This document shows positions 39,094 to 62,488 of a stretch of 64,000 nt of DNA, piece after piece. Under the pieces are notes generated by a model that was not told the DNA's origin, made no database searches, and saw only the letters and a program-made list of their open reading frames with translations. The stretch's first letter is position 1. Every line of letters starts with the position of its first letter. The stretch comes from Candidatus Parcubacteria bacterium (GTDB lineage Bacteria; Patescibacteriota; Minisyncoccia; UBA6257; HR35). The position numbers and the translations under genes are program-made. Location of the stretch: contig BPJI01000001.1 in NCBI GenBank assembly GCA_026004535.1, forward strand, positions 15,915-79,914, written 5' to 3'.

Positions 39094-39096
39094 TCA

Positions 39097-42353: not shown

Positions 42354-44665
42354 TAAATTAATAAAATTGAATTAATAAAATTAAGATTGTCGATTTTCTT
42401 TGGCACTTGTGTTCTTTTTATTAGTGGCAATTTCTTAATTTCTATTCTTTTTAATTTATCATCGGCAATTATGATTTCCTTTTCATCCTTGATTGATTCA
42501 GCAGCCAAAAGCTCGCCATACTTATTGTCAAAAATTTTAACACCAACACCACCTCGGTTTTGAATTTTAATTTCTTGAAGATCAATTTTTTTATAAAAGC
42601 CTTGTTGAAAAATTAAAAGTAAAAGATTGCTATTTTTAACAAAAGCTTTCGTAATTTTTTCATTTTTCAATTTCATTATCTTTACTCCTTTAGCAGTTTT
42701 TCTTTGTAAAGGTAAATTTTCTTTAAAAAGCAAAATATTACCACTATTATTTATAACTCCTAAGGTTTCTCCCCCATTAATTAAAAAAGCATCAACAACT
42801 TCATCTTTCCCAGCTGAAACACCGCTTCTTCTGTTAGTTAAAACCTCCTCTAATTCAATTTTTTTGCCCAAACCATTAGCAAAAATTAATAATAAGTATT
42901 TTGCTTTTTCTTGAACTAAAATTTTTACAATCTCATCATTTTTATCCAAAATAATTTGTGATTCCAGATATTTAGCTGAAGAATAAAAAGACCCTAAACT
43001 CAGATTATAAACCTTGCCTAAACGACTGATTAAAATTAATTTATCATGAGTTGAAACTAATTTTAAAATTTTTGGTAGTTCATTTTGTTTTATTACTTTT
43101 TCAAGATTAAATTTATCAACAGGAATTAGATTAACTAAATTTTTCCGATCGACAACTAACCAAACTTTTTCTTCAGGAATAATTTCTTCTTTTTTAGTAA
43201 AAATTAATTCTTGATTAATAATATTTGTTAGTCTTTCGCTTGGATAGTTTTTAATAATTTCATCTGCTTCTCCAACAATTATCTCATCTATTTTTTTGGC
43301 GCTTTTTAAAATTAATTCTAATTCTTTGATGATCGATCTTCTTTCTTTTAGTTCGTCTAAAATTTTATGTCTTTCCATCTGAGTTAGGGTTCGAAGGGGC
43401 ATTTCTAAAATTGCATCTGCTTGTTTTTCTGAAAGTTTAAATTTCTTCATTAAATTTTCTAAAGCTTCTTTTTTATCTTTGGCTTTTTTAATTGTATTAA
43501 TGACTTTATCTAAGTTTTCTAAAGCAATATCAAAACCTTCCAGTAAATGAACTCTCTCTTTATTTTTTTCTAAATCAAATTTTGTTCTTCTTTTAATAAC
43601 CTCGCGTCGATGTTGTATCCAGGCAATTAAAAGTTCTTTGAAGGAAAAAATTTTGGGTTGAATTCCTTTATCTAAAGCAATCAAATTAAAATAAAAAGTT
43701 TTAGCCAAAGAAGTCAAGCGATAAAGATTTTCTTTTAATTTTTCTAAATTGGCCTCTGATCTTGTTTCAATTACAATTCTTATCCCCTCTTTACTTGATT
43801 CATCACGCACATCCTTAATTTCAGGCAAAACTTTTTCCAAGGCTAGATTAGCAATTTCCTTAACTAATTCTGCTTTATTTACTTGCCAAGGTATGGAAGT
43901 TATAATTAGTCTTTCTTTTCTGCCTTGCTCAATATTGATCTCTCCAGCCAAAGTTATGCCACCTTTGCCTGTTTCATAGATTTCTTTTAATTTTTCGGCA
44001 CCATAAATTTTGCCTCCAGTTGGAAAATCAGGGCCTTTAACGTAATTTAAAATCTCTTCAGTTGTTGCTTCTGGTTTTTTAATCAAAAATTTAATTGCTG
44101 ACATAACTTCAGTTAAATTATGAGGCGGAATTGAGGTTGCCATACCAACAGCAATTCCTAAAGAACCATTAATAATTAAATTTGGAATTTTCGAAGGTAA
44201 GACAACCGGCTCCTGACGAGTATTATCATAATTTGGTCTAAAATCAACAGTTTCTTTATCAATATCAACCAACATTTCTTCAGCAATTTTTGAGAGTTTG
44301 GCCTCTGAGTAACGCATTTGAGCTGGCGGATCACCATCAATTGAACCGAAATTTCCCTGCCCCCAAACTAAAGGATATCTTAAAGAAAAATTCTGAGCCA
44401 TTCGAACCAAGGCTTCATAAATTGGTGCATCACCATGGGGATGATAACGCCCCATACATTCACCAACAATGGCTGCGCATTTTCTGAATTTCTCTCTGGC
44501 CCATAACCCTAATTCTTTCATTGTATATAAAATTCTTCGCTGAACAGGTTTTAAACCATCGCGAGCATCAGGTAAAGCACGAGAAACGATAACACTCAGA
44601 GCATAATCTAGATAAGATTGTCTTAACTCTTGAGAAATCTCCTGACTAATTATTTTTTCTTTCAT
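42353..44665 (-). CDS. gyrA: DNA gyrase subunit A. The start is assigned to the ATG ([10 protein letters not shown]). The longer track ORF begins at a GTG inside a palindromic element.
   Basis: QRDR-region [23 protein letters not shown]. The [16 protein letters not shown]...[11 protein letters not shown]-terminus aligns with the GyrA start. C-terminal beta-pinwheel repeats. Confidence 0.9.
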
Positions 44666-44689
44666 TTTATTAATATGCAGAGCATAATG

Positions 44690-44812
44690 AACTGACACTG
44701 AACATACTAAACCAACGCTGAACTAACAGAAGATGATGAATAAATAGTAAAATTATTCTATGAGTTTTGTGTTAGTTCGGTATAGTTCTGCGTATAGTTC
44801 TTTAAGTTATGT
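44690..44812. repeat. Palindromic element copy PE4, intergenic, in the gyrA 5' leader.
   Basis: gaactgacactgaac...gctgaactaacagaag...attattctatgag...tgttagttcgg...agttctgcgtatagttct aligns with PE1 gaaactgacgcagaactaacaaaattattctgtaagttctgcgtaagttct. Confidence 0.6.
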
Positions 44813-44813: not shown

Positions 44814-45002
44814 TCATTTTATTAAATTGCCAACAGCTTCGAAAATAGTTGCTAAGCCTAGATTAAAATTTTGCCAAACAAAAGCTAATGTTTTTTCTGC
44901 TGGTGATGGACTAAGATAACCGCCCCAGATTGTACCACCACTAAACCACCAAAGAAAAATCAACACTAACATTATTGAAGTAACAAATAAAAACTTTTTC
45001 AT
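44814..45002 (-). CDS. Small hypothetical membrane protein.
   Basis: 62 aa, one TM helix, overlaps the next ORF by 4 bp. Confidence 0.3.
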   Translation of the reverse strand: MKKFLFVTSIMLVLIFLWWFSGGTIWGGYLSPSPAEKTLAFVWQNFNLGLATIFEAVGNLIK

Positions 45003-45472
45003 TGCAAGACAAAAATTAATTTATCGACCTTTTTCAAATTGATCTTTAATTTATCTCCCTTTGAACTTTGGAATTTTTCTAATTTAATATTTTTATTAGT
45101 TAAAATCAAATTTGGCTTAAATAGAGAAACCATTCTTTCATCAAAAAAGTCAACTAAAAACAAAGCTTCGACTTCTTTTTTAGTCATTCTAATTTTTTTA
45201 AGTGTTTCTTCGCTAAGTTCTTTGCTATAGACAAGGCTTCCCTCTTTGCTGTCAAAAAGATAAGTGATAAAATTTTTATTACTAAAGCCCCAAAAATAAA
45301 CATCGCCAACATTATATTCACCAGCAGAATTAAAAATTTTGTCATAATTAATATTTTTTGAGATATCAGTTAAAATTATATTCTTATCTTTAGAAACCGA
45401 AGGTGGATCAAGAACAAAATTTACACCATCTAAAACTAATTCATAATAATTATTTATTTTTTTAATTTCCAT
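44999..45472 (-). CDS. Hypothetical protein.
   Basis: 157 aa ORF. The GAATTA(A)CGAGTTAA motif lies 6 nt upstream of its ATG. Confidence 0.4.
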   Translation of the reverse strand: MEIKKINNYYELVLDGVNFVLDPPSVSKDKNIILTDISKNINYDKIFNSAGEYNVGDVYFWGFSNKNFITYLFDSKEGSLVYSKELSEETLKKIRMTKKEVEALFLVDFFDERMVSLFKPNLILTNKNIKLEKFQSSKGDKLKINLKKVDKLIFVLQ

Positions 45473-45551
45473 TTAATAATGAACTCATTAACTCGTTAAT
45501 TCGCGAACTAATGAATTAAATTTTTGTTTTATGTTATAATTTTATCACAAA

Positions 45552-46589
45552 ATGAATAATCAAAAAACAAAAACTATTCTAAGATTAACAACAAAGCCAT
45601 TAGAAATTGGTTCAATTTTAGAAGGAAGAGTGATTAGTAAAAAAAGAGGAGAGCTTTATGTTGATTTGAGTCCTTATGGTACTGGCAGACTTTATGGTTC
45701 TTTTTATTTACAATCCAAAGATTTGGCTCAAAAATTAAATCCTGGTGATATAACTGGAGTTAAAATTATTGGTTTGGATGATGGTTATGGTAATTATGAA
45801 ATTTTACTTCAGGAACTAAGCGCTATTGATAAGTGGGAGAAAATTTTAAATTATCATCAAAAAGGAGAAATTTTAGAATTAGAAATAAAAGATGCTAATC
45901 GTGGCGGCTGGGTTGTTGAAGTTGAAGGCGTTCAAGGATTTGTTCCTGTTTCTCAACTTTCGCCTGAATATTATCCTCGAGTTGAAGCCAATAATAAAAA
46001 CTTAATTTACGAACATTTAAAAAGCTTTGTTGGCCAAAAAATAAAATTAAAAATTATTGCCGCTACACCAAAAACTAACAAACTTGTTTTATCAGAAAAG
46101 GCTGCTAAAGAAGAACTTTATCAACAGATTTTAGATAAACTAATGGTTGGAGATATTTTAAAAGTTAAGGTTGTCGGCCTAAGCCCTTTTGGCCTTTTTG
46201 TTAGATTCAATGAAAATCCAGCTATGGATGGCTTGATTCACATTTCTGAAATCCCTGAAGAAAAATCCGAGTTGGAAAAACACTTCAAAGTCGGCGATGT
46301 TTTGGAAGCTAAGCTAACCCAAATTAAACAAGATAAGGTTAGTTTTAGTTTGAAAGATCTTGAACCTGATCCCTGGGTAATTTTGGCTAAAAATTATAAA
46401 GAGGGAGATAAAGTAATTGGCTTAGTTAAAGAAAAAAATGAAATTTTTGGCTTAGTTGAAATTGGAAGGGTTCAAGGTTTAGTTTTTGAAAATTTGAATA
46501 AAATTGATATCGGCCAAGAATATAATTTTATCATCGACAAACTCAATCCCAAGGAAAAAAATTTAATCTTAAAACTTAGTCATGAATAA
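45552..46589 (+). CDS. rpsA: Four-S1-domain RNA-binding protein (short ribosomal protein S1-like).
   Basis: Repeated S1 motifs GRVISKKRGELYVDL, GDILKVKVVGLSPFGLFVRF, GDKVIGLVKEKNEIFGLVEIG. Confidence 0.55.
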   Translation: MNNQKTKTILRLTTKPLEIGSILEGRVISKKRGELYVDLSPYGTGRLYGSFYLQSKDLAQKLNPGDITGVKIIGLDDGYGNYEILLQELSAIDKWEKILNYHQKGEILELEIKDANRGGWVVEVEGVQGFVPVSQLSPEYYPRVEANNKNLIYEHLKSFVGQKIKLKIIAATPKTNKLVLSEKAAKEELYQQILDKLMVGDILKVKVVGLSPFGLFVRFNENPAMDGLIHISEIPEEKSELEKHFKVGDVLEAKLTQIKQDKVSFSLKDLEPDPWVILAKNYKEGDKVIGLVKEKNEIFGLVEIGRVQGLVFENLNKIDIGQEYNFIIDKLNPKEKNLILKLSHE

Positions 46590-49760: not shown

Positions 49761-49831
49761 AGCCGGCGGTGGGACTCGAACCCACATCTTCCCTTTACGA
49801 AAGGGACGCTCTGCCCTTGAGCTACACCGGC
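49761..49831 (-). tRNA. tRNA-Thr (anticodon CGT).
   Basis: Reverse complement gccggtgtagctcaagggcagagcgtccctttcgtaaaggga..., anticodon loop ttCGTaa. Confidence 0.75.
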
Positions 49832-49832
49832 A

Positions 49833-49903
49833 TGGACCTACGGGGAATTGAACCCCGATCTCTGCTGTGCGACAGCAGTGTTTTACCATTAAACTATAGG
49901 CCC
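49833..49903 (-). tRNA. tRNA-Ala (anticodon CGC).
   Basis: Reverse complement gggcctatagtttaatgg...ctgctgtCGCacagcag. A G3:U70 identity pair is present. Confidence 0.7.
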
Positions 49904-49943
49904 AGTTTAATTTTATAATATAATTAGACCATAAAATAATTTA

Positions 49944-50015
49944 GGGCGGGTAGCTCAGTGGCAGAGCATCACGTTTACACCGTGAAGGTCGTGGGTTCAA
50001 ATCCCACCCCGCCCA
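49944..50015 (+). tRNA. tRNA-Val (anticodon TAC).
   Basis: gggcgggtagctcagtggcagagcatcacgtttacaccgtga..., anticodon loop ttTACac. Confidence 0.8.
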
Positions 50016-50146: not shown

Positions 50147-50677
50147 ATGAAAAAATTCATTATTTCAATAATTATAATATTTTCAGCAATATTGTTAATT
50201 GGCTCGCTTGAAAAAAAGAGAGAATTTACCATCACCCATAGTTTTAACAATAAAAAAAGCAATGAAAAAAACCTAGCGGAAAATAAAAACAATGATTCCC
50301 AACAAACAAATAGCGATTTTTTGATAAGTATTCAAGATAAGATAAATAGCAATTTAGAGTCTTTAATTTCAAAACTAACACCAGATCAAGATAAATCAAT
50401 GGATAGATATAATGAAGAAATTAATCAATTACTACAAAAGTACAAAGCTCCAGATATACAGAATTTAGATTCTGACTATTTTATAAATATTGCCAAAGAA
50501 TTAGCAAACATAAATCCTCCGCTTTCTTTATATGAACAACATTTAGAATTAATAAGATATTACTACACAGCTGGTTTTATTTTAAAAGAAATTCAACAAA
50601 CTAATAGTTTCCCAGAAAAAATAATCTTAGCCGAATATCTTAAAACATTTTTACGAAAGATTAAGTCATCACAATAA
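50147..50677 (+). CDS. Signal-anchored hypothetical protein. It is the first gene of the T4SS-like cluster.
   Basis: N-terminal TM/signal, then a hydrophilic helical 150 aa region. Confidence 0.4.
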   Translation: MKKFIISIIIIFSAILLIGSLEKKREFTITHSFNNKKSNEKNLAENKNNDSQQTNSDFLISIQDKINSNLESLISKLTPDQDKSMDRYNEEINQLLQKYKAPDIQNLDSDYFINIAKELANINPPLSLYEQHLELIRYYYTAGFILKEIQQTNSFPEKIILAEYLKTFLRKIKSSQ

Positions 50678-50733
50678 ATAGTTAAAATATTGGAAATATT
50701 TTATAATATAAATATCTTAAAACATTCAAGAAG

Positions 50734-52752
50734 ATGCTAAGTAAAAACTTAAAAATTTTAATACTAATAACTACGGTGGTTATTTTCTTATTGCCATTTA
50801 ATAAAATAGAAGGCCTAACAACAGTTCCTGTAAGTGATTATGGAGCACGACAATTACTACAAAATATAGGTGGTTTATTAGACGTCTTAAATACTCAATT
50901 ACCAAAACTCTTAAATCCCTTAAATGTTAACACAAAAGGAATTTTAGAAAGCATGACTAATGAAAAATTAGACAAATATCTCAATGATTCTCTTAAGTTT
51001 TATGAACTAACTAGGTATGTTCAGTATTATGAAAATCAATTGAAAACTTTAGAAAAAGAGACCGAGAATTATAAAAAAGTTCAATTAGAAGAAGCAAAGA
51101 TAGCCGGTGCTTATCTTGCTTTACAAGAAATTGCACAACAAATAAAATGCACCGCACCATCCGTAAGAGATAAATTTAACGCTGCCATTGTTACAATTTT
51201 TAGTCCCTATGACTTAGCTAATAGAGCTTTAATTGGTTATTTTAAGGATATAATCAATTGTCGAGAATCATCAATGGAATCAACGATAACCAAAATGTCA
51301 AAACAAAAAAGCTCATTCGTTTTTTTACGACCATTCGTTATAACACCTTTTTTATCTCAAATAAATCTAGAAACAGACGTATCCGACTCCAGTATGATAC
51401 AAATTAAGTCAGCATTTTTAGAAACTGAACTTACAATCTATACAAACGATATAATTAACACAATATCGATCCTGGTTAACCAAAAAGTTAAAGAAAAAGT
51501 AAGAGAAAGAGAAAATGAAATTGGCACAATTAAACCCTATTATGAAAAATGTGTCTCTAAGTTAAATCTTGATACAGTAACTGATCAAGGAATAGTTTTT
51601 TGTACTGATTATAAAGTATATATCAGCGGAGAAGATTTTCGACAAATAGTTAGTGATTTAAAACGACAGATAACTAACCCTCAATTATCATTTAATCAAA
51701 CCTATGATTATCTGATGAATTTAATAAAATTTAATGAATCAACCACAGCATTAACAGTTTCAAATAGTGGTGATATATTTTTATCCGAAGCCCTAAAAGA
51801 AAAAATATGTGGAAGATTCGAGAAAGATAACGCAACAGCCGGACAATATAGCGCTTATACTCAATGCTTAAAAGATTTAGCTGAAAAATATAACGAGTAT
51901 ATAAAAAAAATTGAAGAAGAAATTAAACGTTTTAGAGACCTACAACTAGCCGCTGAATCTAAAACAGTAGAACTCGAAAATAAAGCAAAGGCGATAAATC
52001 TACCAAATGGATGCAGAGCTGGTAATAAATATTTATTTGAAATCAGAGAATATCTTGAAACAGAAAGAGAAAATTATAAAATAATAACCATCAGACTTTC
52101 AGATTTATTAGGCTTAATAGGCATTAAACTCAACGACATTAATAGGTCAATAAACCAAATGAACAGCACAATTCAAGAAATTGTTCGTGAAATAAATAAT
52201 CTTATCGATATTCTTAATGACGTCTTGAAGTTAGCAAAAATACCATTAAATATTCCACCTATAGCATTCGATATCCCTATTTTTAATGTACTCGATTTTA
52301 TATTAGGTATTGCTAAAGTAAATGCTTTACTTTTACCAGATACTATCTCAAAAATAAATAATATAACTAATAAAATATCGTCCTCGGTAGATAGTGTCGA
52401 AAATCTTTTTAACGAGAACATAGCTAATATAAATGATTTCCAAAAAACATTGAGTGAAACTTATGATAGATATGATATCTTAAGCGCCAACAATAGATTA
52501 ATGAATGACTATCCATATCTTGAGGAGAAATTAAACATATACGAAGAGTTAACTAAGCAAGATAGAGAAACCTTAGAAAAGATGGGAGTTTGCCTCGAAG
52601 AATTTTATCCATTTATTACTGACAAATCTTCAGAAAGGCAATCTTCTCAACGAATTACAATTAAACCGTCTGAGCAAAAATTTAGCTTTTTTGGTTATAT
52701 AGAAAATTTATTCAAACCAAAAATGGTTAAAATTATATACAATGAAAAATAA
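50734..52752 (+). CDS. Large secreted alpha-helical protein, hypothetical (possible T4SS surface/tip component).
   Basis: Signal peptide. 672 aa with coiled-coil segments. Confidence 0.4.
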   Translation: MLSKNLKILILITTVVIFLLPFNKIEGLTTVPVSDYGARQLLQNIGGLLDVLNTQLPKLLNPLNVNTKGILESMTNEKLDKYLNDSLKFYELTRYVQYYENQLKTLEKETENYKKVQLEEAKIAGAYLALQEIAQQIKCTAPSVRDKFNAAIVTIFSPYDLANRALIGYFKDIINCRESSMESTITKMSKQKSSFVFLRPFVITPFLSQINLETDVSDSSMIQIKSAFLETELTIYTNDIINTISILVNQKVKEKVRERENEIGTIKPYYEKCVSKLNLDTVTDQGIVFCTDYKVYISGEDFRQIVSDLKRQITNPQLSFNQTYDYLMNLIKFNESTTALTVSNSGDIFLSEALKEKICGRFEKDNATAGQYSAYTQCLKDLAEKYNEYIKKIEEEIKRFRDLQLAAESKTVELENKAKAINLPNGCRAGNKYLFEIREYLETERENYKIITIRLSDLLGLIGIKLNDINRSINQMNSTIQEIVREINNLIDILNDVLKLAKIPLNIPPIAFDIPIFNVLDFILGIAKVNALLLPDTISKINNITNKISSSVDSVENLFNENIANINDFQKTLSETYDRYDILSANNRLMNDYPYLEEKLNIYEELTKQDRETLEKMGVCLEEFYPFITDKSSERQSSQRITIKPSEQKFSFFGYIENLFKPKMVKIIYNEK

Positions 52753-54856
52753 AAATCTATTAATAATTTTTTTCTGTTTTGCACTGGTTATACTACCTTT
52801 AAAACAAGCTTGGGCTTTTATTTTTGATTGGCTAGGAGAAAAAGTTGTTAAAGGCATTGCTGGTATTATAAGATTTTTTACTAAATTTATACACGAACTT
52901 TTATTTTTCATAAATATAGATTTATTGGCTAAAATAGTAAATTATGTTGCGACACTAAATCCTTTTAAAGATGATGTTCAATATAGAGATGAGGGAGGGC
53001 AGACAAAAACAGTAATGTCTCCAGTAAAGGTTATCTGGAATATACTTAAAAATTTTGCTTATATTCTTTTAGTTTTTTCTGCTCTTTTTGCTGGTTATGA
53101 ATGGCTAATGGGAAAAGACGCAAACGCTAAAAGATTGATTTTCAATATTATTATTGTTGCTCTTCTAATTAGTTTCACTTTTGTTTTAGTTCGAGAAGCT
53201 TTTTTGGTTGTCTATGGTTTTGAAAAAGGAATAACTGGCGGTAATTCAAACCAAATTGGAACCATTATTGCTGCTTCATTATGGCAAAAAAATCCTTTTA
53301 CTGAGATAGATTCGTTTGCTAATAGTTTAGCATCACAACAAAGGGATAATGAGGAAATTTTTATATCATTAGCCAGTGCTATTGGTTATATCTTTATTAT
53401 TGTCTTTGATATGCTCATCCTCATCATTTTATTCATAACTGCCGTTTTGTTTATTATTCGTTACTTAATGATTATTTTCCTTGGCGGGACATCATCAATT
53501 GCTTTAGCAACTTTAGCTTTTCCTGAATTTAAAGGAGCACTTGGGCAAGTATTTGCTAATTTAAAGTTTTGGAATACATGGTTAGAATATTTTATCCGTT
53601 GGCTTTTGGTAATTCCTATTTTTGTTATTTTGGTTATTTTGGGTAATGCTTTAAAAGAAAATACTTTAGGCCAAATTCAAGCTCAATCTGTAAAAAGTGA
53701 TTTAATTGAGTTTATGATGCTACTTTTGATGCTAGAAGGTTGGTATATTATCTCGATTATTATCGCTAACAAAATTTCTAAAGGTGCAGCTAATCTGGGT
53801 AAAGCAGCAGCAACAGCGGCAATGCTCACTGTTGGTGGTTTGACTACCAAAGGGCTAATGAGCGCTGTTGGACCAAGAATTGGAAATATACTCTCGAAGA
53901 CTGGCGGAGAGGTAGAAGAACGTTTTGCTGGTCGTGGTTTCCTTGGGTCATGGGTTAGTCAAAAAATTGGTAAACCAGTAAAAAAAGCTGGTGAAGATAT
54001 GCTCAAAAGAAGATATGAACTAGAAGCTAAAGCAATTAAATCAAGAATTAGCACAATTGATGAACAATTAAGAAGGGAAAAAGATCCAGAAAAACAAGCA
54101 AAACTAACTGATCAATTAGTTCAATTAACAAAAAGATACGAGAATGTTCCTTATGTTTTAAAACAAATAAATGAAGAGATTGGTAAAATGTCAAGAATGT
54201 CCTTTGAAAAAATAGCGACAAATAAAGATGCTATAAGTCTTTTAGCAGGAGCTGACAAACCTCAAGAATTAAGAGAAAAAGTCATTAGTCAGGTTGATAA
54301 ATTGAGTAAAGGCACTTTAAGAAATATCTTGGGAGATAGAGAACTTTTGGAGGTTTGGAGCAAACTTTCTCTTGATGTTAGTAATGCTTTTATAGATAAA
54401 TTAGGCAAAGAGCTTAGTGATGCTGATGTTATTGAACAATTGACCAAAGAAGAAATAAGAAATCTTATACCTGGATTGCCAGGTAATTTTCAAAAAGCTA
54501 TCAATAGATTATCAAAGGGCTTTGTTGAGGCAGCTACCAAAAAAGATTTAGAAGCTGTAAGTAATGCTCTAGCTTCTTTGAGTGAAGATGTTTGGAGGCA
54601 ACCAGAAAATATTGATAAAGCGTTGAGGGGTTATGAATTAAACGATCAAGAAATCAAAGAGTCTCTTAAAAATGCTCTTACTCGAAGCACAAAGCCAGAA
54701 ATAATCATCAATACTTTAAGAAGCGCACCTAAAGGTGATCCTATAAGACGAACACTATCTTTATTAACTGATACGGAAATTAATGAAATAGAGAGAATTT
54801 TAACTCCTCAATTAAAAAATAAACTTGAAACGATCATCTTAGAAGAAAGCGCTTAA
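52742..54856 (+). CDS. Polytopic membrane protein (VirB6/TrbL-like) with a 350 aa cytoplasmic C-terminal extension.
   Basis: About 7 TM helices in the first 350 aa (FIIVFDMLILIILFITAVLFII...). It sits adjacent to the PrgI-like and VirB4 genes. Confidence 0.45.
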   Translation: MKNKNLLIIFFCFALVILPLKQAWAFIFDWLGEKVVKGIAGIIRFFTKFIHELLFFINIDLLAKIVNYVATLNPFKDDVQYRDEGGQTKTVMSPVKVIWNILKNFAYILLVFSALFAGYEWLMGKDANAKRLIFNIIIVALLISFTFVLVREAFLVVYGFEKGITGGNSNQIGTIIAASLWQKNPFTEIDSFANSLASQQRDNEEIFISLASAIGYIFIIVFDMLILIILFITAVLFIIRYLMIIFLGGTSSIALATLAFPEFKGALGQVFANLKFWNTWLEYFIRWLLVIPIFVILVILGNALKENTLGQIQAQSVKSDLIEFMMLLLMLEGWYIISIIIANKISKGAANLGKAAATAAMLTVGGLTTKGLMSAVGPRIGNILSKTGGEVEERFAGRGFLGSWVSQKIGKPVKKAGEDMLKRRYELEAKAIKSRISTIDEQLRREKDPEKQAKLTDQLVQLTKRYENVPYVLKQINEEIGKMSRMSFEKIATNKDAISLLAGADKPQELREKVISQVDKLSKGTLRNILGDRELLEVWSKLSLDVSNAFIDKLGKELSDADVIEQLTKEEIRNLIPGLPGNFQKAINRLSKGFVEAATKKDLEAVSNALASLSEDVWRQPENIDKALRGYELNDQEIKESLKNALTRSTKPEIIINTLRSAPKGDPIRRTLSLLTDTEINEIERILTPQLKNKLETIILEESA

Positions 54857-54858
54857 AA

Positions 54859-55470
54859 ATGAATAAGGAAATTATAAAATTTATTGGTAGTGAGGAATAT
54901 GACAAACAAGTAGAAGATATCGGGAAATCTTTAGGTTTTAACTGGGGTGATAAAGAAATGACCAAAATAATAATTTTAATGGATGGAATTGTTAAATATA
55001 ATCTTACTTCCGAGAATCAAGTTAAAGAAGCAATCAAAAAATGGTTGGATTTCTTAAATGAAGAACAAATAAATTCTCTCTATAACTATCTCAAAGAAAA
55101 TTTTTTGCCTAAAGTAAAAGAGCTTTGGCAGAAAGAAGAAATAGAAATAAGTGAAGAAACAATACCTGAAGAAACTTTTGAAGAAAAAGAAAAAAAATAT
55201 ATTGAGATGATGAAAGAATTAATTAAAACTGGAGAATTAAAATTACCACCCAAAAGAGAAACAAAACAAATAATTGAACAAAAACCAAAAGAAGAAAAAG
55301 AAGAGGTCAAAATAATTACTTTTGAACCCGAAGAAAAAATTAACCTTAAAGAGAAATCAACACAAGAAGGAACAACTTTGCCTGAGTCAGCAATTATTAT
55401 TAAGAAAAAGGGCGAAGAAGAAAAACCAAAACCAGAAGATGAAGAACTTTTAGATCTTTCTAAGTTATAA
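54859..55470 (+). CDS. Acidic E/K-rich hypothetical protein.
   Basis: 203 aa, low complexity, no TM helix. Confidence 0.35.
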   Translation: MNKEIIKFIGSEEYDKQVEDIGKSLGFNWGDKEMTKIIILMDGIVKYNLTSENQVKEAIKKWLDFLNEEQINSLYNYLKENFLPKVKELWQKEEIEISEETIPEETFEEKEKKYIEMMKELIKTGELKLPPKRETKQIIEQKPKEEKEEVKIITFEPEEKINLKEKSTQEGTTLPESAIIIKKKGEEEKPKPEDEELLDLSKL

Positions 55471-55477
55471 TAATAAT

Positions 55478-56035
55478 ATGGCTACCAGATTTTATGTGCC
55501 AAAATTTATTACTATTGAGGACAAATTAGCCGGACTTTTAACTTTTCGACAGCTTTTTGCTTTGTTGGGGGCTTTTCTTTTAAGCTTCCTAGTTTTTAGA
55601 ATTAACCAATTTTTAGGCTTTATTACCATGATAATTTCTTTTGGCACAGCTTTTTTATTAACTTTTGTTCATCTCAATGGCAAACCATTCGTTTATATTT
55701 TGCCTCAAGTTTTTGGCTTTGTTTTTGGTAGTAAAAGATTTGTCTGGCAAAAAATTGAAAAAGTAACTTATAAAGAAGTAGCCCTATCTCCAGAAATAAC
55801 CGATAGAGTTCCCTATCCTAAAATTAAGGAAAGAAAAAAAAATATCGGCGATAAAGCTGAAATAATTTTGGAATATCCTGAAACTAACATCAAAGAGAAA
55901 TTGTCTGTTTCTTTAAAAGAACCGATCGCCCTCCAAGCCGAAGAAATTAATCGTTATGTTCATCGTCATCTAAGCAATCCCAAAAATCCTTATCGCTTTT
56001 TTCCTTATGTTAAATTTTATCGAACCATAAAATGA
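55478..56035 (+). CDS. PrgI/TcpE-like (VirB3-like) small membrane protein of Gram-positive-type T4SS.
   Basis: YVPKFITIEDKLAGLLTFRQLFALLGAFLL followed by two TM helices. It sits immediately upstream of VirB4 with a 4 bp overlap. Confidence 0.5.
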   Translation: MATRFYVPKFITIEDKLAGLLTFRQLFALLGAFLLSFLVFRINQFLGFITMIISFGTAFLLTFVHLNGKPFVYILPQVFGFVFGSKRFVWQKIEKVTYKEVALSPEITDRVPYPKIKERKKNIGDKAEIILEYPETNIKEKLSVSLKEPIALQAEEINRYVHRHLSNPKNPYRFFPYVKFYRTIK

Positions 56036-56661
56036 TTGCCCCAACATTTTCTTTAATTAAAGTTAAAGACATTAAAAATGACACCTTAATCCTAGCTAAT
56101 GGAGGTTTAAGAGGCATCTTAGAGGTTAGTGGCCTTAATCTTTCTTTATTAGATGAAAAAGAGCAAGAAATAATTATTAATCAGTTTAAAAATTTACTTG
56201 ATGGTTTAGATTTTCCAATTGAGATTTTAGTTCTGTCGCGGATGGAAAATATTAATAATTATTTAAAAGTTTTACATTTAAGACTTGAAGAAGAAAAAGA
56301 TCCGCTAATCAAGTTTCAATTAGAAGAATATATTAGTTTTTTAGAAGATTATTTACAAAACCATAAGATAATGAAAAAAATTTTTTATCTTGTCGTGCCC
56401 TATGATTCAATTGAAACTGACTTGGGGCCATTGGCTAAAATTCAAAAACAATCTGGCTTGGGAGAAAATGAAGAAACAAAATTTGAACAATTAGAAGCAA
56501 GAATAAATTATGTAATCGATGCTTTAAATAGCGTTGGTCTTTCTGCTTTTAGACTTTCTGATTTAGAATTAATTGAACTTTTATTTGAAGTATATAATCC
56601 TAATTTAAGGTGGCAACAATTACCAAAACAAATTATTGAAAAATTAGCCGAGGTACTATGA
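56032..56661 (+). CDS. VirB4/TrbE-family N-terminal domain (CagE_TrbE_VirB-like), encoded as a separate ORF.
   Basis: DTLILANGGLRGILEVSGLNLSLLDEKEQEIIINQFKNLLDGLDFPIEILVL matches the VirB4 N-domain pattern. There is an ATGA overlap with the ATPase ORF. Confidence 0.5.
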   Translation: MIAPTFSLIKVKDIKNDTLILANGGLRGILEVSGLNLSLLDEKEQEIIINQFKNLLDGLDFPIEILVLSRMENINNYLKVLHLRLEEEKDPLIKFQLEEYISFLEDYLQNHKIMKKIFYLVVPYDSIETDLGPLAKIQKQSGLGENEETKFEQLEARINYVIDALNSVGLSAFRLSDLELIELLFEVYNPNLRWQQLPKQIIEKLAEVL

Positions 56662-58466
56662 TTAACATTCCAAAAATACCGTTTCTAAAACAAAACCAGA
56701 AAGCAAAGATTCCTATACCTCAAGAATTAACTGCTTTTGAAAAGGTGAAAGAATTAATTGCTCCTCCAGGAGCAGAATTTGCTACTGATTACTTTCAAAT
56801 AGGCAATATTTTTGGCCGAACATTTCTTGTCATAGATTACCCTTCTTATCTTTTTTCTGGTTGGTTAGAAAAAATAATTAATTTAGACGAGGCCTTCAAT
56901 TTAAGTTTATATTTTTACCCTCTAGAAACAGGAGCGGTTTTAAAACAACTAGAAAAACAACTGGCAAGAATATCCGTACAAATACTTGAACGTGAAGAGG
57001 CAGGTAAAGTTAGATCACCTGAATTGGAAGCGGCTTACAAAAATGTTGAAGAATTAAGAGATTTACTAGCTCAGGCTGAAGAAAGAATGCTCAAGGTTGG
57101 ACTTTATTTAACAATCTTTGCCAGTGACAAAAAAGAACTTGACCAAAAATCAATAAAAATTTCAAAAATCTTAGAAAGCATTTTGGTAACAGTCAAGCCA
57201 ATTATGTTTCTTCAAAAAGAAGCATTTATCTCAACTTTACCTTTAGGCTTAGATGAGATAAAAACTAACTATCATTTAAATTCCTCAACCGCCTCTTCGT
57301 TTTTCCCTTTCATTTCTTCGGAATTAGTTGATGAATCAGGAATTTTTTTTGGTATCAATCTTCAAAATGCTGGTTTTGTTATTTTAGATCGCTGGAAATA
57401 TGAAAACCCTCATTTAATCATTTTAGCTCGCTCAGGGTCTGGGAAATCTTACACAGCCAAATTAGAAGTAATGAGAAATCTAATGATAGGAACAGACGTT
57501 TTAATTTTAGATCCTGAAAACGAATATCAAAGTATTACTGATCTTTATGGTGGCTCTTTTATTCCTCTGTCTTTAAAAGCTGACAATACATTTAACCCCT
57601 TTGATTTGCCCCCTGTTTTACCCAACGAAGAACCGATTGATATTTATAAGGAACATATTGCTGATTTAATTATTTTTTGCCAATTAATTATGAATGAAAA
57701 ATTATCATCCGAAGATTTGGCAATTTTAGATCAAGCAATTAATCAAACCTATGCTTCATTTAACATCTTACCTCATCAAGATTTCTCTAAAATTGAAAGA
57801 TTTCCAACTTTAAACGATCTAGAAAAAATCTTAAATGGTCTTGTTGGTGGAAGTAAAATTGCAAGCAAACTCTATCCTTATACCCAAGGAAACTTCAGTG
57901 GCTTTGTTAATAAACCAACGACAGTTGAACTCAACAAAAGATTAATTGTTTTTGGTTTTAAAGATCTACCTGAAATTTTAAAACCAATTGGAATGTTTGT
58001 TGTTTTAAACTATATCTTAAACAGGGTCAGACGAGAAATGAAAAAAAGACTAGTGATCATTGATGAGGCTTGGTGGATAATGAGACAAGAAATTGGGGCT
58101 GAATTTTTGTTAAATGTTGTTAAACGAGGAAGAAAATATAATTTAGCTGTAACCAATATCACTCAAGACGTTGAGGATTTTCTTAATTCTCCTTATGGTC
58201 GACCAATTATTACCAATTCAGCTATTGTTTTTTTAATGAAACAATCAACAGCAACGATTGATCTTTGTGGTCAAACTTTTGCTTTATCTGAAGGCGAAAA
58301 GCAGTTTTTACTTCAAGCTGAAAGAGGGCAAGGTTTAATTTTAGTCGGCCAAAAAAAAGCGCCTGTTTATGTTTTAGCCTCCTATGCTGAAGATCAAATT
58401 ATTCGAACCAGACCCGAACAATTAATTGCCTTAAGAAAAGCCAAAGAGGCCTTAATGAAAAAATGA
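56658..58466 (+). CDS. VirB4-like type IV secretion/conjugation ATPase (C-terminal ATPase domain).
   Basis: Walker A LARSGSGKSYT. Walker B RLVIIDEAWWIM. ITQDVEDF. Length 602 aa. Confidence 0.7.
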   Translation: MINIPKIPFLKQNQKAKIPIPQELTAFEKVKELIAPPGAEFATDYFQIGNIFGRTFLVIDYPSYLFSGWLEKIINLDEAFNLSLYFYPLETGAVLKQLEKQLARISVQILEREEAGKVRSPELEAAYKNVEELRDLLAQAEERMLKVGLYLTIFASDKKELDQKSIKISKILESILVTVKPIMFLQKEAFISTLPLGLDEIKTNYHLNSSTASSFFPFISSELVDESGIFFGINLQNAGFVILDRWKYENPHLIILARSGSGKSYTAKLEVMRNLMIGTDVLILDPENEYQSITDLYGGSFIPLSLKADNTFNPFDLPPVLPNEEPIDIYKEHIADLIIFCQLIMNEKLSSEDLAILDQAINQTYASFNILPHQDFSKIERFPTLNDLEKILNGLVGGSKIASKLYPYTQGNFSGFVNKPTTVELNKRLIVFGFKDLPEILKPIGMFVVLNYILNRVRREMKKRLVIIDEAWWIMRQEIGAEFLLNVVKRGRKYNLAVTNITQDVEDFLNSPYGRPIITNSAIVFLMKQSTATIDLCGQTFALSEGEKQFLLQAERGQGLILVGQKKAPVYVLASYAEDQIIRTRPEQLIALRKAKEALMKK

Positions 58467-59086
58467 AAAAAATATTTTTCTTAATTATAATTACTTCTTT
58501 ATTGACAATTAAAAATTTTGCCTTGGCTAAGGATAATATTTATATCAGTTTTAAAAAAACTGCTGCTGGCTTGGTTATAGGTAATGAAATCTTTGATCAT
58601 CAAACAAAAAAATTTTTAAATCCAACTGAATATATTTATGAATGGACAATCCCAGCTTTAGGAATAAATAAGCAAATAACATATTCAAATATTATTTTTA
58701 TTCCATTAGAAGGTAAAATATCTAATATATCTAATATTTTCCTAAATCTAAAAGTAACCAAAAAATTTTCTGATAGGGTGTTTTATTTTAATGAACTTAA
58801 AGTATCATTGCTAAAGCCAAAGGTAGTAATTGGCTTAAAACGAAATAATATTCTGATCCCCTTGATATCTAAACTAAAACCTGATGATATTTTAACCCTT
58901 ACAACTGAAGGTTTCTCTTCAACTAATTTAAATTACATCTGGACATTCAATGAAGCTTTTATTTCTAACGAAAAAGAGATATCAGTCAGTAATTTAGAAG
59001 AAAAAAATGGTATAATAAAAATTAAGGTCTTTGCCCCACTAACTGGTGAAAAAGCCGAAGATTCAGCGCCAATCCAAATTGAATAA
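58463..59086 (+). CDS. Secreted/lipoprotein-like hypothetical protein.
   Basis: Signal peptide. 207 aa, beta-rich. Confidence 0.35.
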   Translation: MKKIFFLIIITSLLTIKNFALAKDNIYISFKKTAAGLVIGNEIFDHQTKKFLNPTEYIYEWTIPALGINKQITYSNIIFIPLEGKISNISNIFLNLKVTKKFSDRVFYFNELKVSLLKPKVVIGLKRNNILIPLISKLKPDDILTLTTEGFSSTNLNYIWTFNEAFISNEKEISVSNLEEKNGIIKIKVFAPLTGEKAEDSAPIQIE

Positions 59087-59925
59087 TGCCAAAAATTAAG
59101 TCACCATCAGAATATATCCAATGTACTGATATTGCTTCTTGTTTTCAAGCAATTTATAATTTCTTCTTTGCTCTCTTGATTGCTTTAGCTTTTTTATATT
59201 TTCTTTGGGGTGCTATTCAATATTTAATTTCAGGTGCAAATATATATCCAAAAGAGGAGGGTAAAAAGAAAATGAAGGATTCTATTATTGCTGTAATTAT
59301 TGCTTTAAGTGTGCCAATTATTTTAAATATGATTAATCCTGATATTTTTAGAGCAGAATTAAGCATACCAATAGTTGAAGCCCGTCTTCCTGGCTACATA
59401 TCTGCCCCAGAAACACCGCCAGCAGATATTCTACCATCAGGACAAAAAGTAGTTGATGCTCAACCAAATTCAAATTTAATGAATAAATTGAGGGATATAA
59501 ACTATATAAAGTATCTTATTATTGACTGTGACGCTTTGAGAATGACAATTGTTGGGGTTAATAACGAAGGTCAAGAAATCCAAGTAGCTAATGATATTCC
59601 AATAAATACCGGGAAACGGATAAATGGGAAAAATTGTAATGAAAAAAATGTACCAAACAGTCATACTACTCCTAAAGGTTCGTTTAAAATTTCAGGTAAA
59701 AGATATAATCCTAATGGTCTTGTATCATTAGAATCTGGAGCTTCTCTGGGCACCAGGGCTCTGGTATATCATCAACAACGCGGACTTCTTATTCATGGTA
59801 GCGCAACAGAAGAAAAAAATAGGAGTTTTCCGGAAACTTGGGGCTGTATTAGAATGAAAAATGAAGATTTAGCTGCTATATTTGACAAGGTAAGAGTAGG
59901 TACAACTATATTGAAAATTAAATAA
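59086..59925 (+). CDS. Pilin-like N-terminal membrane module fused to an L,D-transpeptidase (YkuD) catalytic domain.
   Basis: N-terminus ALLIALAFLYFLWGAIQYLISGANIYPKEEGKKKMKDSIIAVIIALSVPII carries the pilin-paralog motif. C-terminus LIHGSATEEKNRSFPETWGCIRMKNEDLAAIFD carries the YkuD H...GC(I)R motif. Confidence 0.55.
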   Translation: MPKIKSPSEYIQCTDIASCFQAIYNFFFALLIALAFLYFLWGAIQYLISGANIYPKEEGKKKMKDSIIAVIIALSVPIILNMINPDIFRAELSIPIVEARLPGYISAPETPPADILPSGQKVVDAQPNSNLMNKLRDINYIKYLIIDCDALRMTIVGVNNEGQEIQVANDIPINTGKRINGKNCNEKNVPNSHTTPKGSFKISGKRYNPNGLVSLESGASLGTRALVYHQQRGLLIHGSATEEKNRSFPETWGCIRMKNEDLAAIFDKVRVGTTILKIK

Positions 59926-59951
59926 TCAAAGAATATCAAAATTATTAAAAA

Positions 59952-61052
59952 ATGAAAAAAAGAGTTATTATTGGGATAATTATATTATTGATTGTGGCTT
60001 TAATAGTTATTTTAGGTTATTTTAGAAGTAAATCAGCAAAAGAAAAAGCAGAATCGCCTGGAGTTATTGAAGTAGAACAACCACCACAATCATTACCTCT
60101 GCCTATTAATCAAATAACATCCTCAATTCCATCAATACCTACCTTACCGACAGCAACAACAGAACCAACAAAAACTTATCAATTACTTTTCAATCAATCT
60201 TTTATTTATCTTGATTTAGATTATCCTCTGCTTTATGTTTACGATCCTCAACAAGAAATTATTAAATATCTAAGTTTAGAAGATGAAACCTATAGAGAAA
60301 TAGCAAAAATACCTAACCTAAAACAAGGTTGGCTATCTGAAGATAAAACAAAAATTGTTATTGAAACTAATAATGGCTTCTCTTTGATAGATATAAAAGC
60401 TGATAAACTAGATACTCTGCCAATATTCACTCAAAAAGTCGTTTTAAATAAAAATATTATTCTATATTTAAGTAATGATAAAGATATTTCTTATATAGCT
60501 TACTTTAATGATAAAACTGGGGATGTTAAAAAAATTAGAAACTTAGGTATTTTAAACCCTGATTTTGCTATTTTAAAAAACGGTATTTTGATCTATGAAC
60601 AAAATAGTCCGGTCTTATTCTTAGATTTCAAAAATCAAGCTGATCTTAGTCTATTTTTAGATATACAAACTGCAACCATTATACCTAATAAAAATAAAGA
60701 TTTGATTTTTATGAGTTTTAAAAAAAATGATATATGGCAAAGTCAAATTATCGATATAAATAAAAAACTGATTTACTCTTTTTCTTGGGCAGCCATTAAA
60801 GACAAATGTACTTTTGATGAAATTTTAGTTTGTGCCCTGACAAGCAATTTTAATGATTCAAGTCCTTCAGATTGGTATTCTAATAAAACGAGTGTTGACG
60901 ATAAAATAGTTATTTATTATCCTCAAAATAATAAACTCGAAGAAATTCAATTAGAAGGAAAATTTGATTTTGTTAGACCAAAATTAACTCCCTTAGGTAT
61001 TATTGCCTGGAATCGTCTAGATGCTAAGTTTTATTTATTGAAGATCGAGTGA
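59952..61052 (+). CDS. Membrane-anchored extracytoplasmic hypothetical protein.
   Basis: N-terminal TM, a P/T/S linker, then a 300 aa beta-rich domain. Confidence 0.35.
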   Translation: MKKRVIIGIIILLIVALIVILGYFRSKSAKEKAESPGVIEVEQPPQSLPLPINQITSSIPSIPTLPTATTEPTKTYQLLFNQSFIYLDLDYPLLYVYDPQQEIIKYLSLEDETYREIAKIPNLKQGWLSEDKTKIVIETNNGFSLIDIKADKLDTLPIFTQKVVLNKNIILYLSNDKDISYIAYFNDKTGDVKKIRNLGILNPDFAILKNGILIYEQNSPVLFLDFKNQADLSLFLDIQTATIIPNKNKDLIFMSFKKNDIWQSQIIDINKKLIYSFSWAAIKDKCTFDEILVCALTSNFNDSSPSDWYSNKTSVDDKIVIYYPQNNKLEEIQLEGKFDFVRPKLTPLGIIAWNRLDAKFYLLKIE

Positions 61053-61641
61053 ATTTGATAAAAAGAGGTCTTTCTAAAAAAGCTAAAATAATGTTAGTTA
61101 ACCAATAAAGACTAAAAAGTGCTGGGAGTTGAAATAAAACCAAGCTTATTAAACCAAAGAAAAATAAAGATATTTTTCTTTGTTCTTGAGGTAATTGGAA
61201 CAAACTTAAAGCTTGTAAAACAAGAATAGCCAGAACAAGAAAAATATTTCTTTGAGTTAAATCAATTAAACCCAAAAAAGAAAGATTGAGCCCAGATGTT
61301 TTTAGAAGAAGATCGAGGGCTAAAAAAATAATTATAAAAATTGGCAAAGATAAAAACTGAATAAAAATTGTAAAAAATGGATTATAGTTTTCTTGTTGAT
61401 AAATTTTTGTTAATTCCTCAGCTTGTTTTTGAAAATCATTTTTATATTTTTTTAAGACCTCATTGATTTTAGGTCTTAATCTTTTCATTTTTTCCCCTTC
61501 TAAAAAAACTAAATATTCAATTGGCAAAATAACAACTTTTAAAATCAAGGTGAAAACAATGATTGTTAAACCAAAATCCTGGATAAAATTATTTAACCAG
61601 AAAATAAAACCTAATAAACTTTGGCCCAAAAATTTAAACAT
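61024..61641 (-). CDS. yidC: Membrane protein insertase YidC (short form).
   Basis: GLTIIVFTLILKVVILPI...MKRLRPKINEVLKKYKND...ELTKIYQQENYNPF matches the YidC/Oxa1 core. Confidence 0.7.
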   Translation of the reverse strand: MFKFLGQSLLGFIFWLNNFIQDFGLTIIVFTLILKVVILPIEYLVFLEGEKMKRLRPKINEVLKKYKNDFQKQAEELTKIYQQENYNPFFTIFIQFLSLPIFIIIFLALDLLLKTSGLNLSFLGLIDLTQRNIFLVLAILVLQALSLFQLPQEQRKISLFFFGLISLVLFQLPALFSLYWLTNIILAFLERPLFIKFTRSSINKT

Positions 61642-61957
61642 TAATCAAAATTCTTATTAAAGATTCTTTCAATTTTAAAAAATCGACATCTTTTCTAAGA
61701 ATAATAAAAAAATCATAGTTTTTAGTTTTTTTCTTTTTTAGAAACTCTCTAATTATAGCATAAACTCTTCGGCGCGCTTTATTTCTTTGAACTGCTTTTT
61801 TAAAAACTTCTTTTTGGGGTAAAATGGCAAAACGAGGATGATTGAGATTGTTTTTTTGAAAATAAACTAAAAAAATATCATTCGAAATTTTTTGGTAAGA
61901 GCGAGAAAAGAAATTTTTTATTTCTTCACCTTTCAGACGATATTTTTTTTTAAGCAT
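61634..61957 (-). CDS. rnpA: RNase P protein component.
   Basis: Basic 107 aa. KKAVQRNKARRRVYAIIRE matches the RnpA RNR motif. It lies in the rpmH-rnpA-yidC order. Confidence 0.65.
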   Translation of the reverse strand: MLKKKYRLKGEEIKNFFSRSYQKISNDIFLVYFQKNNLNHPRFAILPQKEVFKKAVQRNKARRRVYAIIREFLKKKKTKNYDFFIILRKDVDFLKLKESLIRILINV

Positions 61958-61960: not shown

Positions 61961-62077
61961 TTAAACAGTTAATTTCTTTCTTCCCTTCCTTCTTCGTCTT
62001 TGCAAAATCTTTCTTCCTGCTTTTGTCCCTTTTCTGGCTAAAAATCCAGAAGTTCTTTTTTGTTTTAACTTTGTCAT
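61961..62077 (-). CDS. rpmH: Ribosomal protein L34. It is not in the six-frame track, which shows a spurious 69 aa ORF in another frame.
   Basis: Translated by hand: [38 protein letters not shown]. Confidence 0.8.
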
Positions 62078-62081
62078 TTGG

Positions 62082-62152
62082 CTGCGGGGCTTGGATTCGA
62101 ACCAAGACTAACGGCTCCAAAGGCCGCTGTGCTGCCATTACACCACCCCGCA
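62082..62152 (-). tRNA. tRNA-Gln (anticodon TTG).
   Basis: Reverse complement tgcggggtggtgtaatggcagcacagcggcctttggagccg..., anticodon loop ctTTGga, U1:A72. Confidence 0.7.
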
Positions 62153-62160
62153 AATACAAA

Positions 62161-62488
62161 ATATCTACCCGGATGATTACCGGATAATATATACCCGGAT
62201 AACTAACCGGATATATATTTACCCGGACTATTACCAGATTATTTTACCCGGATAAACACCGGATAAAAATATCTACCCGGATGATTACCGGAATAGATTA
62301 CCCGGATAGCCACCCGGATTGTTTTAACCGGATGAGTACCGGATAAAAAATATTTTATAAATCACCCGGTTTATATCTGGGTAGTATATCCGGTCTATAT
62401 CCGGGTAATATTATCCGGTTCACATCCGGGTATTTATATCCGGTCTAAATCCGGGTAGAAAATATTTTTCAGCTGCTGTCTGCGTTAT
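62161..62488. repeat. Phased CCGGATA/TATCCGG array e. It is a near-identical inverted copy of array d, including the cagctg flank.
   Basis: The reverse complement of 62161-62488 aligns end-to-end with 32216-32572 with only a few mismatches. Confidence 0.8.

Follow-up and report, generated by a model that had tools for sequence, protein, structure and literature searches.

A chromosomal and probably non-conjugative type IV secretion and pilus locus of the Patescibacteria type in Candidatus Parcubacteria bacterium KatS3mg096

The window analysed here, a 64-kb stretch of the closed 556,583-bp genome of Candidatus Parcubacteria bacterium KatS3mg096 (a Paceibacteria-type metagenome-assembled genome, MAG), encodes ten plus-strand open reading frames (ORFs; first to last, g01 to g10) at 50147-61052 which very probably belong to the chromosomal, non-conjugative type IV secretion system (T4SS) and pilus cluster of Patescibacteria already published in 2023-2025, a signature of the phylum present in almost all of these ultrasmall parasites. 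The locus is thus a rediscovery, not a system of a new kind; published descriptions may be exceeded in one feature only, an exchangeable, pilin-anchored wall enzyme, encoded in this genome by g09. The ten co-directional ORFs had been listed, in order, in a prediction made from the sequence alone (the original prediction), and all are present at their coordinates (locus tags _059 for g02 and _066 for the pilin fusion, g09). Neighbouring genes either overlap by 1-11 nt or are separated by gaps of 3-56 nt, and because these distances are so small the region reads as a single operon. Domains were assigned with Pfam and NCBIfam profile scans, and topology was taken from a hydropathy scan. For comparison, the best 80 of 600 VirB4-matched genome-contig stretches were used as related loci, with tblastn and jackhmmer run on their ORFs.

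The putative motor of the system, a VirB4 ATPase, matches the NCBIfam CD1110 family (1.6e-108; 364 bits, cutoff 325) and, in Pfam, P-loop_TraG (6.6e-25), CagE_TrbE_VirB (1.4e-7), and AAA_10. The residues of its Walker A (G260, G262, K263, and S264) and Walker B (D469 and E470) motifs are invariant, and weak matches to CedB and CedD were also retrieved. The closest plasmid-encoded VirB4 proteins, those of Firmicutes and Actinobacteria, share 28-33% identity with it, which fits a Gram-positive-type ancestry of this ATPase. VirB4 relatives are encoded on 595 of the 600 matched stretches; the best 80 of these are titled as Patescibacteria-type or unclassified uncultured MAGs (VirB4 identity 41-75%), and those relatives that carry a name are from Parcubacteria, Paceibacterota, or Patescibacteria.

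Directly upstream of virB4, and overlapping by 4 nt with both the virB4 and the PrgI-like gene, lies an ORF that matches positions 106-238 of the VirB4_plasma model (4e-15) as well as TrsD/TraD (3e-6), and whose protein carries the precomputed Pfam label "TraC-like" in close relatives. The original prediction described a VirB4 ATPase in two ORFs; the two ORFs stand, and they are better described as two genes than as one broken gene. Full-length VirB4 models align colinearly with TrsD followed by VirB4, virB4 is directly preceded by a trsD homologue in 79 of the 80 related loci, and the 120 best VirB4 relatives are 447-621 aa long, almost all of them around 600 aa. A frameshifted or otherwise broken VirB4 is ruled out by this pairing, and the two ORFs are, as judged from their relatives, a native pair of TrsD and a short VirB4.

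The proteins assigned to the membrane part of the machine are recognized mainly through their families. The PrgI/TcpE-like protein, predicted as such before, has a transmembrane (TM) hairpin at residues 17-55 and matches Pfam PrgI at 7.3e-5, under the gathering score; among its positional homologues, 65 of 67 match Pfam PrgI and 7 match TcpE. Similarly, the polytopic VirB6/TrbL-like protein of the original prediction holds at the level of its family. It has six TM-like segments in residues 1-345, followed by a helical cytoplasmic tail of about 360 aa with coiled-coil matches only, and it weakly matches the NCBIfam pLS20_p028 conjugation membrane protein (8e-6). Its family occupies the same position in 49 of the 80 loci, where six members match Pfam TrbL/VirB6 and two match TrbL_4. 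The Gram-positive-type layout proposed in the original prediction is borne out as an MPF_FATA-type core by the profile searches and the comparative loci together.

No relaxase, type IV coupling protein (T4CP), FtsK-like, or integrase domain was detected in any window ORF of at least 100 aa, and T4SS-DNA_transf, TraG-D_C, TrwB, and FtsK_SpoIIIE had no match within the window, in keeping with the earlier statement that neither a VirD4-like coupling ATPase nor a relaxase is visible there. From the absence of relaxase, coupling-protein, and mobile-element genes in the window, we infer that the machine is non-conjugative.

The arrangement is that of a conserved chromosomal locus. A canonical Paceibacteria locus starts with two or three fast-evolving exported proteins, an extended VirB6, and a variable soluble protein, continues with PrgI, TrsD, VirB4, sometimes a small ORF, the g08 family, a pilin extended by a C-terminal domain, and the g10 family, and ends with yidC and rnpA on the minus strand, usually followed by genes of the size of dnaA and dnaN. 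The order from VirB6 through PrgI, TrsD, VirB4, g08, pilin, and g10 to the minus-strand yidC and rnpA is kept in dozens of the 80 Paceibacteria-like loci. In the window, ftsH stands on one side of the operon and yidC-rnpA-rpmH on the other, an arrangement common to Paceibacteria. The rpmH-rnpA-yidC cluster is intact and is followed by dnaX and a sigma-70 gene and not by dnaA and dnaN; genes of dnaA/dnaN size lie beyond rnpA in most relatives, but not in the KatS3mg096 lineage. Two close relatives, whose VirB4 is 87% identical, have the whole context in common with the window, from ftsH and an M50 peptidase through rpmH and dnaX, which argues for vertical inheritance. An integrated conjugative element (ICE) was ruled out despite the tRNA genes that flank the operon (49761-50015 and 62079-62152): there is no integrase, G+C is even across the whole window, and the position is fixed across a class. 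The even G+C, the housekeeping flanks, and the fixed position likewise give no sign of carriage by a plasmid. The remainder of the window is ordinary housekeeping DNA of about 30% G+C, with rpoB/C, aminoacyl-tRNA synthetases, gyrA, ftsH, and an intein-bearing rtcB. A promoter scan gave no excess over the shuffled expectation, and a terminator scan was uninformative in such AT-rich DNA. The cumulative G-C minimum of the window falls near 45 kb (44999-45552), where gene orientation turns from minus to plus. This is compatible with, and does not demonstrate, an origin of replication located some 5 kb upstream of the operon, as the skew follows the coding strand and cannot place an origin from 64 kb.

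The same set of genes has been described in other Patescibacteria. An "apparent" T4SS was reported for Southlakia epibionticum (Wang et al. 2023; SEML1_0006-0019), without a recognizable coupling protein or relaxase; by transposon sequencing (Tn-seq) nearly all of its genes, the pilins included, are essential for epibiotic growth, as are the flanking SEML1_0004-0005 (PMC10633639). Quinonero-Coronel et al. (2025) surveyed 3,035 Patescibacteria genomes and found VirB4 in 2,417, as a monophyletic clade nested in MPF_FATA and associated with TrsD, PrgI/VirB3, VirB6, and VirB2-like pilins and pilin arrays (PMC12102498). The same component set, the lack of a relaxase, and a location near the origin were reported for 2,407 assemblies; the locus often adjoins dnaA, dnaN, rnpA, and rpmH, relaxases occur in only 103 of the 3,035 genomes, and T4CP homologues are rarely found near virB4 (PMC12102498). 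The window has a CD1110-type VirB4 of about 600 aa, a separate TrsD, PrgI/VirB3, an extended VirB6 (at family level), VirB2-like pilins with an array, and a downstream peptidoglycan enzyme, with no relaxase or T4CP nearby, and it is chromosomal, beside rnpA, rpmH, and yidC. As in Southlakia, the order is VirB6, PrgI, TrsD, VirB4, and then a wall enzyme and an Ig-like exported protein. There are also differences. Southlakia has a separate lysozyme, whereas YkuD is here fused to a pilin hairpin; its pilin array lies inside the cluster, whereas here it is 10 kb away in a gyrA operon; and it has two VirB6-like genes where the window has one. Additionally, dnaA and dnaN are not adjacent here, and no NTF2-like (VirB8-like) gene was recognised in the window. 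Few machines are known to be essential for the epibiotic life of this huge and mostly uncultured radiation, and the Patescibacteria T4SS, for which the requirement was shown in Southlakia only, is among them; the window provides a clean and complete example of the Paceibacteria type, with the operon from g01 to the propeller gene g10, a separate pilin array, and modular exchange of the wall enzyme.

Gram-positive conjugation systems of the MPF_FATA type (PrgH-PrgL of pCF10, CD1110 of Clostridioides difficile CTn2, Trs of pGO1, and Tcp of pCW3) resemble the window system in the CD1110-family VirB4, the PrgI/TcpE-like VirB3, the PrgH/TcpH-like VirB6, the TrsD (as in pGO1), and a membrane-anchored wall enzyme downstream of VirB4 (compare PrgK, TraG, and TcpG), and an outer-membrane core is absent, as expected for a monoderm. 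They differ in that the window contains no relaxase, T4CP, oriT (which is not definable without a relaxase), adhesin, or mobile-element backbone, in that VirB2-like pilins are present here and in none of the Gram-positive conjugation systems, and in that the window system is chromosomal and, by the shared context described above, vertically inherited. A second comparison is with the importers ComB of Helicobacter pylori and archaeal Ced (CedA/CedA1/CedA2/CedB), which likewise combine a VirB4-family ATPase, a polytopic VirB6-like protein, and small hairpin proteins, with no relaxase or coupling protein; the weak CedB and CedD matches of the window VirB4 belong to this likeness. Unlike the window system, ComB has a VirB7/9/10 outer-membrane core and hands DNA to ComEC, and the Ced proteins are only remotely related; import has so far been demonstrated for no Patescibacteria T4SS.

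Some points weigh against reading the locus as the published, non-conjugative Patescibacteria system. The VirB6-like and PrgI proteins of the window itself fall under curated thresholds, and their identity rests on the family level. No VirB8-like (NTF2-fold) component was found, neither g01 nor g08 having a sequence match to one. Finally, the search for a VirD4-like protein covered the 64-kb window, and such a protein is possible elsewhere in the genome.

The original prediction placed the module at 50147-61052. That operon stands; the system reaches further, to a pilin array on the minus strand at 38159-40651, about 10 kb away, which had been missed. The array has five genes with about seven pilin modules, bringing the modules in the window to eight when the hairpin of g09 is counted, and pilin matches (by Pfam T4SS_pilin or a pilin-module hidden Markov model, HMM) were obtained in all six of these genes. 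Every full module shows a leader, a Cys pair, and a TM hairpin. In the jackhmmer results the opening gene of the array falls with the pilins, and it has a signal peptide, Cys pairs, and TM hairpins; the tandem double pilin has two pilin-module HMM domains (7.5e-12 and 1.3e-9), and the short gene that ends the array overlaps the preceding pilin gene by 4 nt. Overlapping stop and start codons tie the array to genes for a 395-aa anchored protein, an S-adenosylmethionine (SAM) methyltransferase, and gyrA (40648-44698, minus strand). The pilin array thus appears translationally coupled to a gyrA operon, which would be an unusual partnership for pilins. The 395-aa protein upstream of the array retrieved no significant PDB sequence match.

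The g09 product was predicted to be a fusion of a pilin module and an L,D-transpeptidase, and both parts were recovered (T4SS_pilin, 1.4e-9; YkuD, 1.7e-14, 55.1 bits against a cutoff of 23.4). The pilin part has a Cys pair ahead of the first TM segment, two TM segments, and a K-rich loop. In the YkuD part, the catalytic motif IHGS...GCIRM (H237, G238, S239, G253, C254, I255, R256, and M257) is invariant in nine orthologues, and g09 is probably an L,D-transpeptidase-type wall-remodelling part of the VirB1 type. This pilin module is combined with YkuD in only about nine protein clusters of a 5.8-billion-protein database. Among 90 syntenic pilins, 80 match T4SS_pilin, and the recognisable C-terminal domains are SLT_3 (four), Peptidase_M23 (two), Peptidase_C39_2 (one), and YkuD (one, g09 itself). 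The 29 nearest relatives without YkuD include 19 with an H-x(3-8)-D ... H-x-H motif, which on the strength of the motif may be LAS-metallopeptidase-like, and six with weak SLT_3 matches. The pilin modules of relatives are 60-70% identical while their C-terminal domains are unrelated; BLAST clustering of the C-terminal parts returned mostly singletons, and different enzyme domains are found in genomes whose VirB4 is 84-88% identical. In one of the relatives with an 87% identical VirB4 (locus L081, 12449-14301), the order of the pilin-fusion and TolB-like propeller genes is inverted relative to 59086-61052 of the window, and the pilin carries an ES ... GLFQIN lytic-transglycosylase-like tail in place of YkuD. 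The inversion and the other tail suggest that the 3' part of the operon was rearranged recently.

Taken by its sequence and position, the g09 slot is that of a predicted pilin-hairpin-anchored peptidoglycan enzyme in the VirB1/PrgK position, the catalytic domain of which is often exchanged, and no mention of such a fusion was found in the searched literature. The exchange of domains on a pilin anchor suggests a link between the T4SS pilus and the breaching of cell walls. Such an enzyme might even be a host-directed tool on the pilus and not a housekeeping VirB1 through which the parasite opens its own wall, though we regard this as rather unlikely. The VirB2-like module would then join or dock at the pilus and present its peptidoglycan-active domain to the host wall, and recombination in the linker would swap SLT, M23, LAS-like, C39-like, or YkuD domains to suit the wall chemistry of the hosts, the YkuD L,D-transpeptidase/endopeptidase being the version of KatS3mg096 and its nearest relatives. 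The idea is in line with the extreme diversity of the C-terminal domains next to so well-kept a pilin module, and with the difference in enzyme domain between genomes with such similar VirB4 proteins.

The operon encodes five further proteins. The first, g01, was predicted to be signal-anchored and has a single N-terminal TM segment; it is fast-evolving, with a homologue detected only in locus L002 and positional equivalents of about 180 aa in L081 and L082, and retrieved no Pfam, NCBIfam, or PDB sequence match. The 672-aa g02 conforms to its description as a secreted helical protein, with an N-terminal hydrophobic leader and eight Cys that are invariant or near-invariant. It is lineage-restricted, with only 25 cluster representatives among 1.84 billion proteins. 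An AlphaFold2 (AF2) model built from a 24-sequence alignment is of moderate confidence (pLDDT 68, pTM 0.60) and has helices of 50-100 residues; no Foldseek match to the PDB was found under E 0.4. We consider g02 a candidate surface or pilus-associated factor. The acidic g04, also as predicted, is the positional equivalent of a 200-500-aa gene between VirB6 and PrgI in relatives, with no Pfam or NCBIfam family match of its own. The description of g08 as lipoprotein-like did not hold and is ruled out, as the sequence contains no cysteine. The g08 family directly follows virB4 in 26 loci, and its weak PDB matches, all Ig/PKD-like (E 0.004-0.01), would allow an Ig-like beta-sandwich as a possible fold. 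For g10, the predicted membrane-anchored beta-rich protein can be refined to a TolB-like beta-propeller (family profile against PDB TolB, 7e-12), and its family lies just before yidC in 61 of the 80 loci.

Table 1. Coordinates of the operon, the pilin array, and the adjoining genes in the window, with the basis of each assignment.
Feature	Coordinates	Strand	Basis or remark
g01, 176-aa membrane-anchored protein, first operon gene	50147-50677	plus	TM-like segment, residues 4-22
g02, 672-aa secreted, disulfide-rich, elongated helical-bundle protein (predicted)	50734-52752	plus	leader and AF2 model
Extended VirB6-like polytopic protein, 704 aa	52742-54856	plus	TM count and weak profile match
g04, acidic 203-aa soluble protein	54859-55470	plus	pI 4.8, no TM segment
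PrgI/TcpE (VirB3-like) two-TM protein, C-terminal extension of ~130 aa	55478-56035	plus	Pfam and family
TrsD-like protein, separate VirB4 N-terminal-domain homologue, 209 aa	56032-56661	plus	NCBIfam
VirB4 ATPase, CD1110/MPF_FATA type, motor of the system	56658-58466	plus	NCBIfam and Pfam
g08, 207-aa exported/anchored protein	58463-59086	plus	one N-terminal hydrophobic segment
g09, VirB2-like pilin hairpin with extracytoplasmic YkuD L,D-transpeptidase domain	59086-59925	plus	Pfam
g10, membrane-anchored TolB-like beta-propeller, last operon gene	59952-61052	plus	TM segment, residues 5-23
First array gene, tandem of two pilin modules (second weak)	39953-40651	minus	pilin-module HMM 1.5e-12, 0.24
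VirB2-like pilin, 137 aa	39543-39956	minus	Pfam T4SS_pilin 2.3e-5; pilin-module HMM 1.7e-12
VirB2-like pilin, 132 aa	39097-39495	minus	Pfam T4SS_pilin 7e-11; pilin-module HMM 7.6e-13
Tandem double VirB2-like pilin, 234 aa	38389-39093	minus	T4SS_pilin 3e-10 (two stretches); TrbC 2.1e-5
Short pilin-like hairpin, 77 aa, no leader, last array gene	38159-38392	minus	pilin-module HMM 9.5e-7
yidC	61024-61641	minus	convergent with the operon, immediately downstream
rnpA	61634-61957	minus	downstream of the operon
rpmH (ribosomal protein L34, 38 aa)	61961-62077	minus	masked by a longer overlapping frame; abuts tRNA-Gln 62079-62152

In the mechanism that we propose, the VirB4/TrsD motor would dock on the PrgI/VirB3-like hairpin and the extended VirB6-like protein, which would together form the membrane translocon. 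The anchored enzyme would remodel the wall locally, while the TolB-like propeller, g08, and g02 would act as scaffold or tip of a VirB2-type pilus in contact with the host bacterium, a variable pilus for which the five genes of the distant array could supply the subunits. The suggestion, made with the original prediction, that such a system may serve uptake, contact, or export rather than conjugation agrees with published opinion, and reviews describe the function as "completely unknown" while mentioning effector delivery or nucleotide acquisition (PMC11665869, PMC12857230).

We tentatively place the import of host macromolecules, nucleic acids in particular, first among the possible roles. 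It is favoured because of the parallels with the importers ComB and Ced, which also lack a T4CP, and because of the nucleotide auxotrophy of the phylum. The idea draws, too, on the weak CedB and CedD matches, on speculation in two earlier works (PMC11665869, PMC12102498), and on host-RNA uptake in the cultivated strain OT8, for which tubular structures and possible T4SS pili have been described (bioRxiv 10.64898/2026.06.21.733656).

A possible but somewhat less likely role is the export of effectors or other proteins, in which the T4SS and its pilus would subvert the host by delivering toxins, wall-degrading enzymes, or the like into the cell or onto its surface. Wang et al. wrote that the system "may instead export proteins" (PMC10633639), effector delivery is raised in PMC11665869, and the fast-evolving secreted g02 and the hypervariable C-termini of the pilin fusions show a variability typical of host-interaction factors. 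Exporters that lack a T4CP do exist (Ptl and Brucella VirB; PMC12102498), but these draw their substrates from a periplasm, which a monoderm does not have; moreover, the window encodes no coupling protein to recruit cytoplasmic substrates, and no effector candidates were identified in it.

That the machine is an organelle for adhesion only, VirB4 powering a VirB2-type pilus for host attachment with no substrate moved, seems improbable. In its favour, the window has eight pilin modules, some of them in an array whose members are divergent paralogues; in Southlakia the pilin array is essential; and VirB4 is a pilus-biogenesis ATPase in canonical systems. Nevertheless, Patescibacteria already have type IV pili for adhesion and motility, and a system that keeps both an extended VirB6 channel protein and a wall-remodelling enzyme is in line with a conduit. 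We would like to note that a pilus-only organelle and the transport models are inseparable on sequence data.

Bona fide conjugation, with the relaxase, coupling protein, and oriT encoded outside the window, is very unlikely. Homology links the core to conjugative MPF_FATA systems (1,719 of the 2,349 plasmids with VirB4 matches are predicted to be conjugative), the T4CP gene is distant from virB4 in many systems, and Patescibacteria genomes commonly carry VirD4-like genes (PMC12102498). However, throughout a whole class the locus keeps its fixed place among housekeeping genes, with uniform G+C and no integrase; few Patescibacteria genomes encode a relaxase, as given above; and the T4CP homologue of Southlakia is non-essential while its T4SS is essential. 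A decaying remnant, in which the VirB4 homology over two ORFs and the absence of recognized VirB8-like, T4CP, and relaxase genes would mark a pseudogenised conjugative element, is effectively refuted by the conservation data: the TrsD and VirB4 pairing extends to essentially all of the 120 best homologues, the Walker and YkuD catalytic motifs are invariant, neighbouring genes show the start-stop overlaps of translational coupling, and the Southlakia homologues are essential.

Some features elsewhere in the window were also recorded. Five intergenic arrays (3206-3519, 15607-15745, 30045-30222, 32240-32543, and 62158-62460) repeat a unit of about 25 nt whose two GC-rich half-sites, ACCCGGAT ... 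ACCGGATA, have a spacing of 11-14 nt, in a genome of 30% G+C, and some of these arrays flip orientation midway, giving long imperfect inverted repeats. Nearly all of the 76 CCGGAT/ATCCGG hexamers in the window are inside the five arrays. No Rfam family matched the arrays, and the 80 related loci contain no clusters like them. They might represent phased sites for protein binding or a REP-like element peculiar to this genome. An origin-specific role of the cluster at 62160-62460, as oriC or DnaA boxes, is ruled out by the presence of the same arrays in four other intergenic regions. On the minus strand, 16569-21095 encodes a 1508-aa RtcB RNA ligase with two intein-type insertions (Intein_splicing, Hint, and LAGLIDADG matches). 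A WD40/beta-propeller gene on the plus strand (9357-10625) is built of 153-nt tandem repeats, about six in number and nearly identical (81-84% matches), which suggests that the repeat was amplified recently within the gene. Finally, an AAA_5 (MoxR/dynein-like) ATPase, a 155-aa ORF, and a CobT_C/VWA-domain protein are encoded in a row on the minus strand at 4727-8554, a trio resembling a MoxR-VWA chaperone pair.

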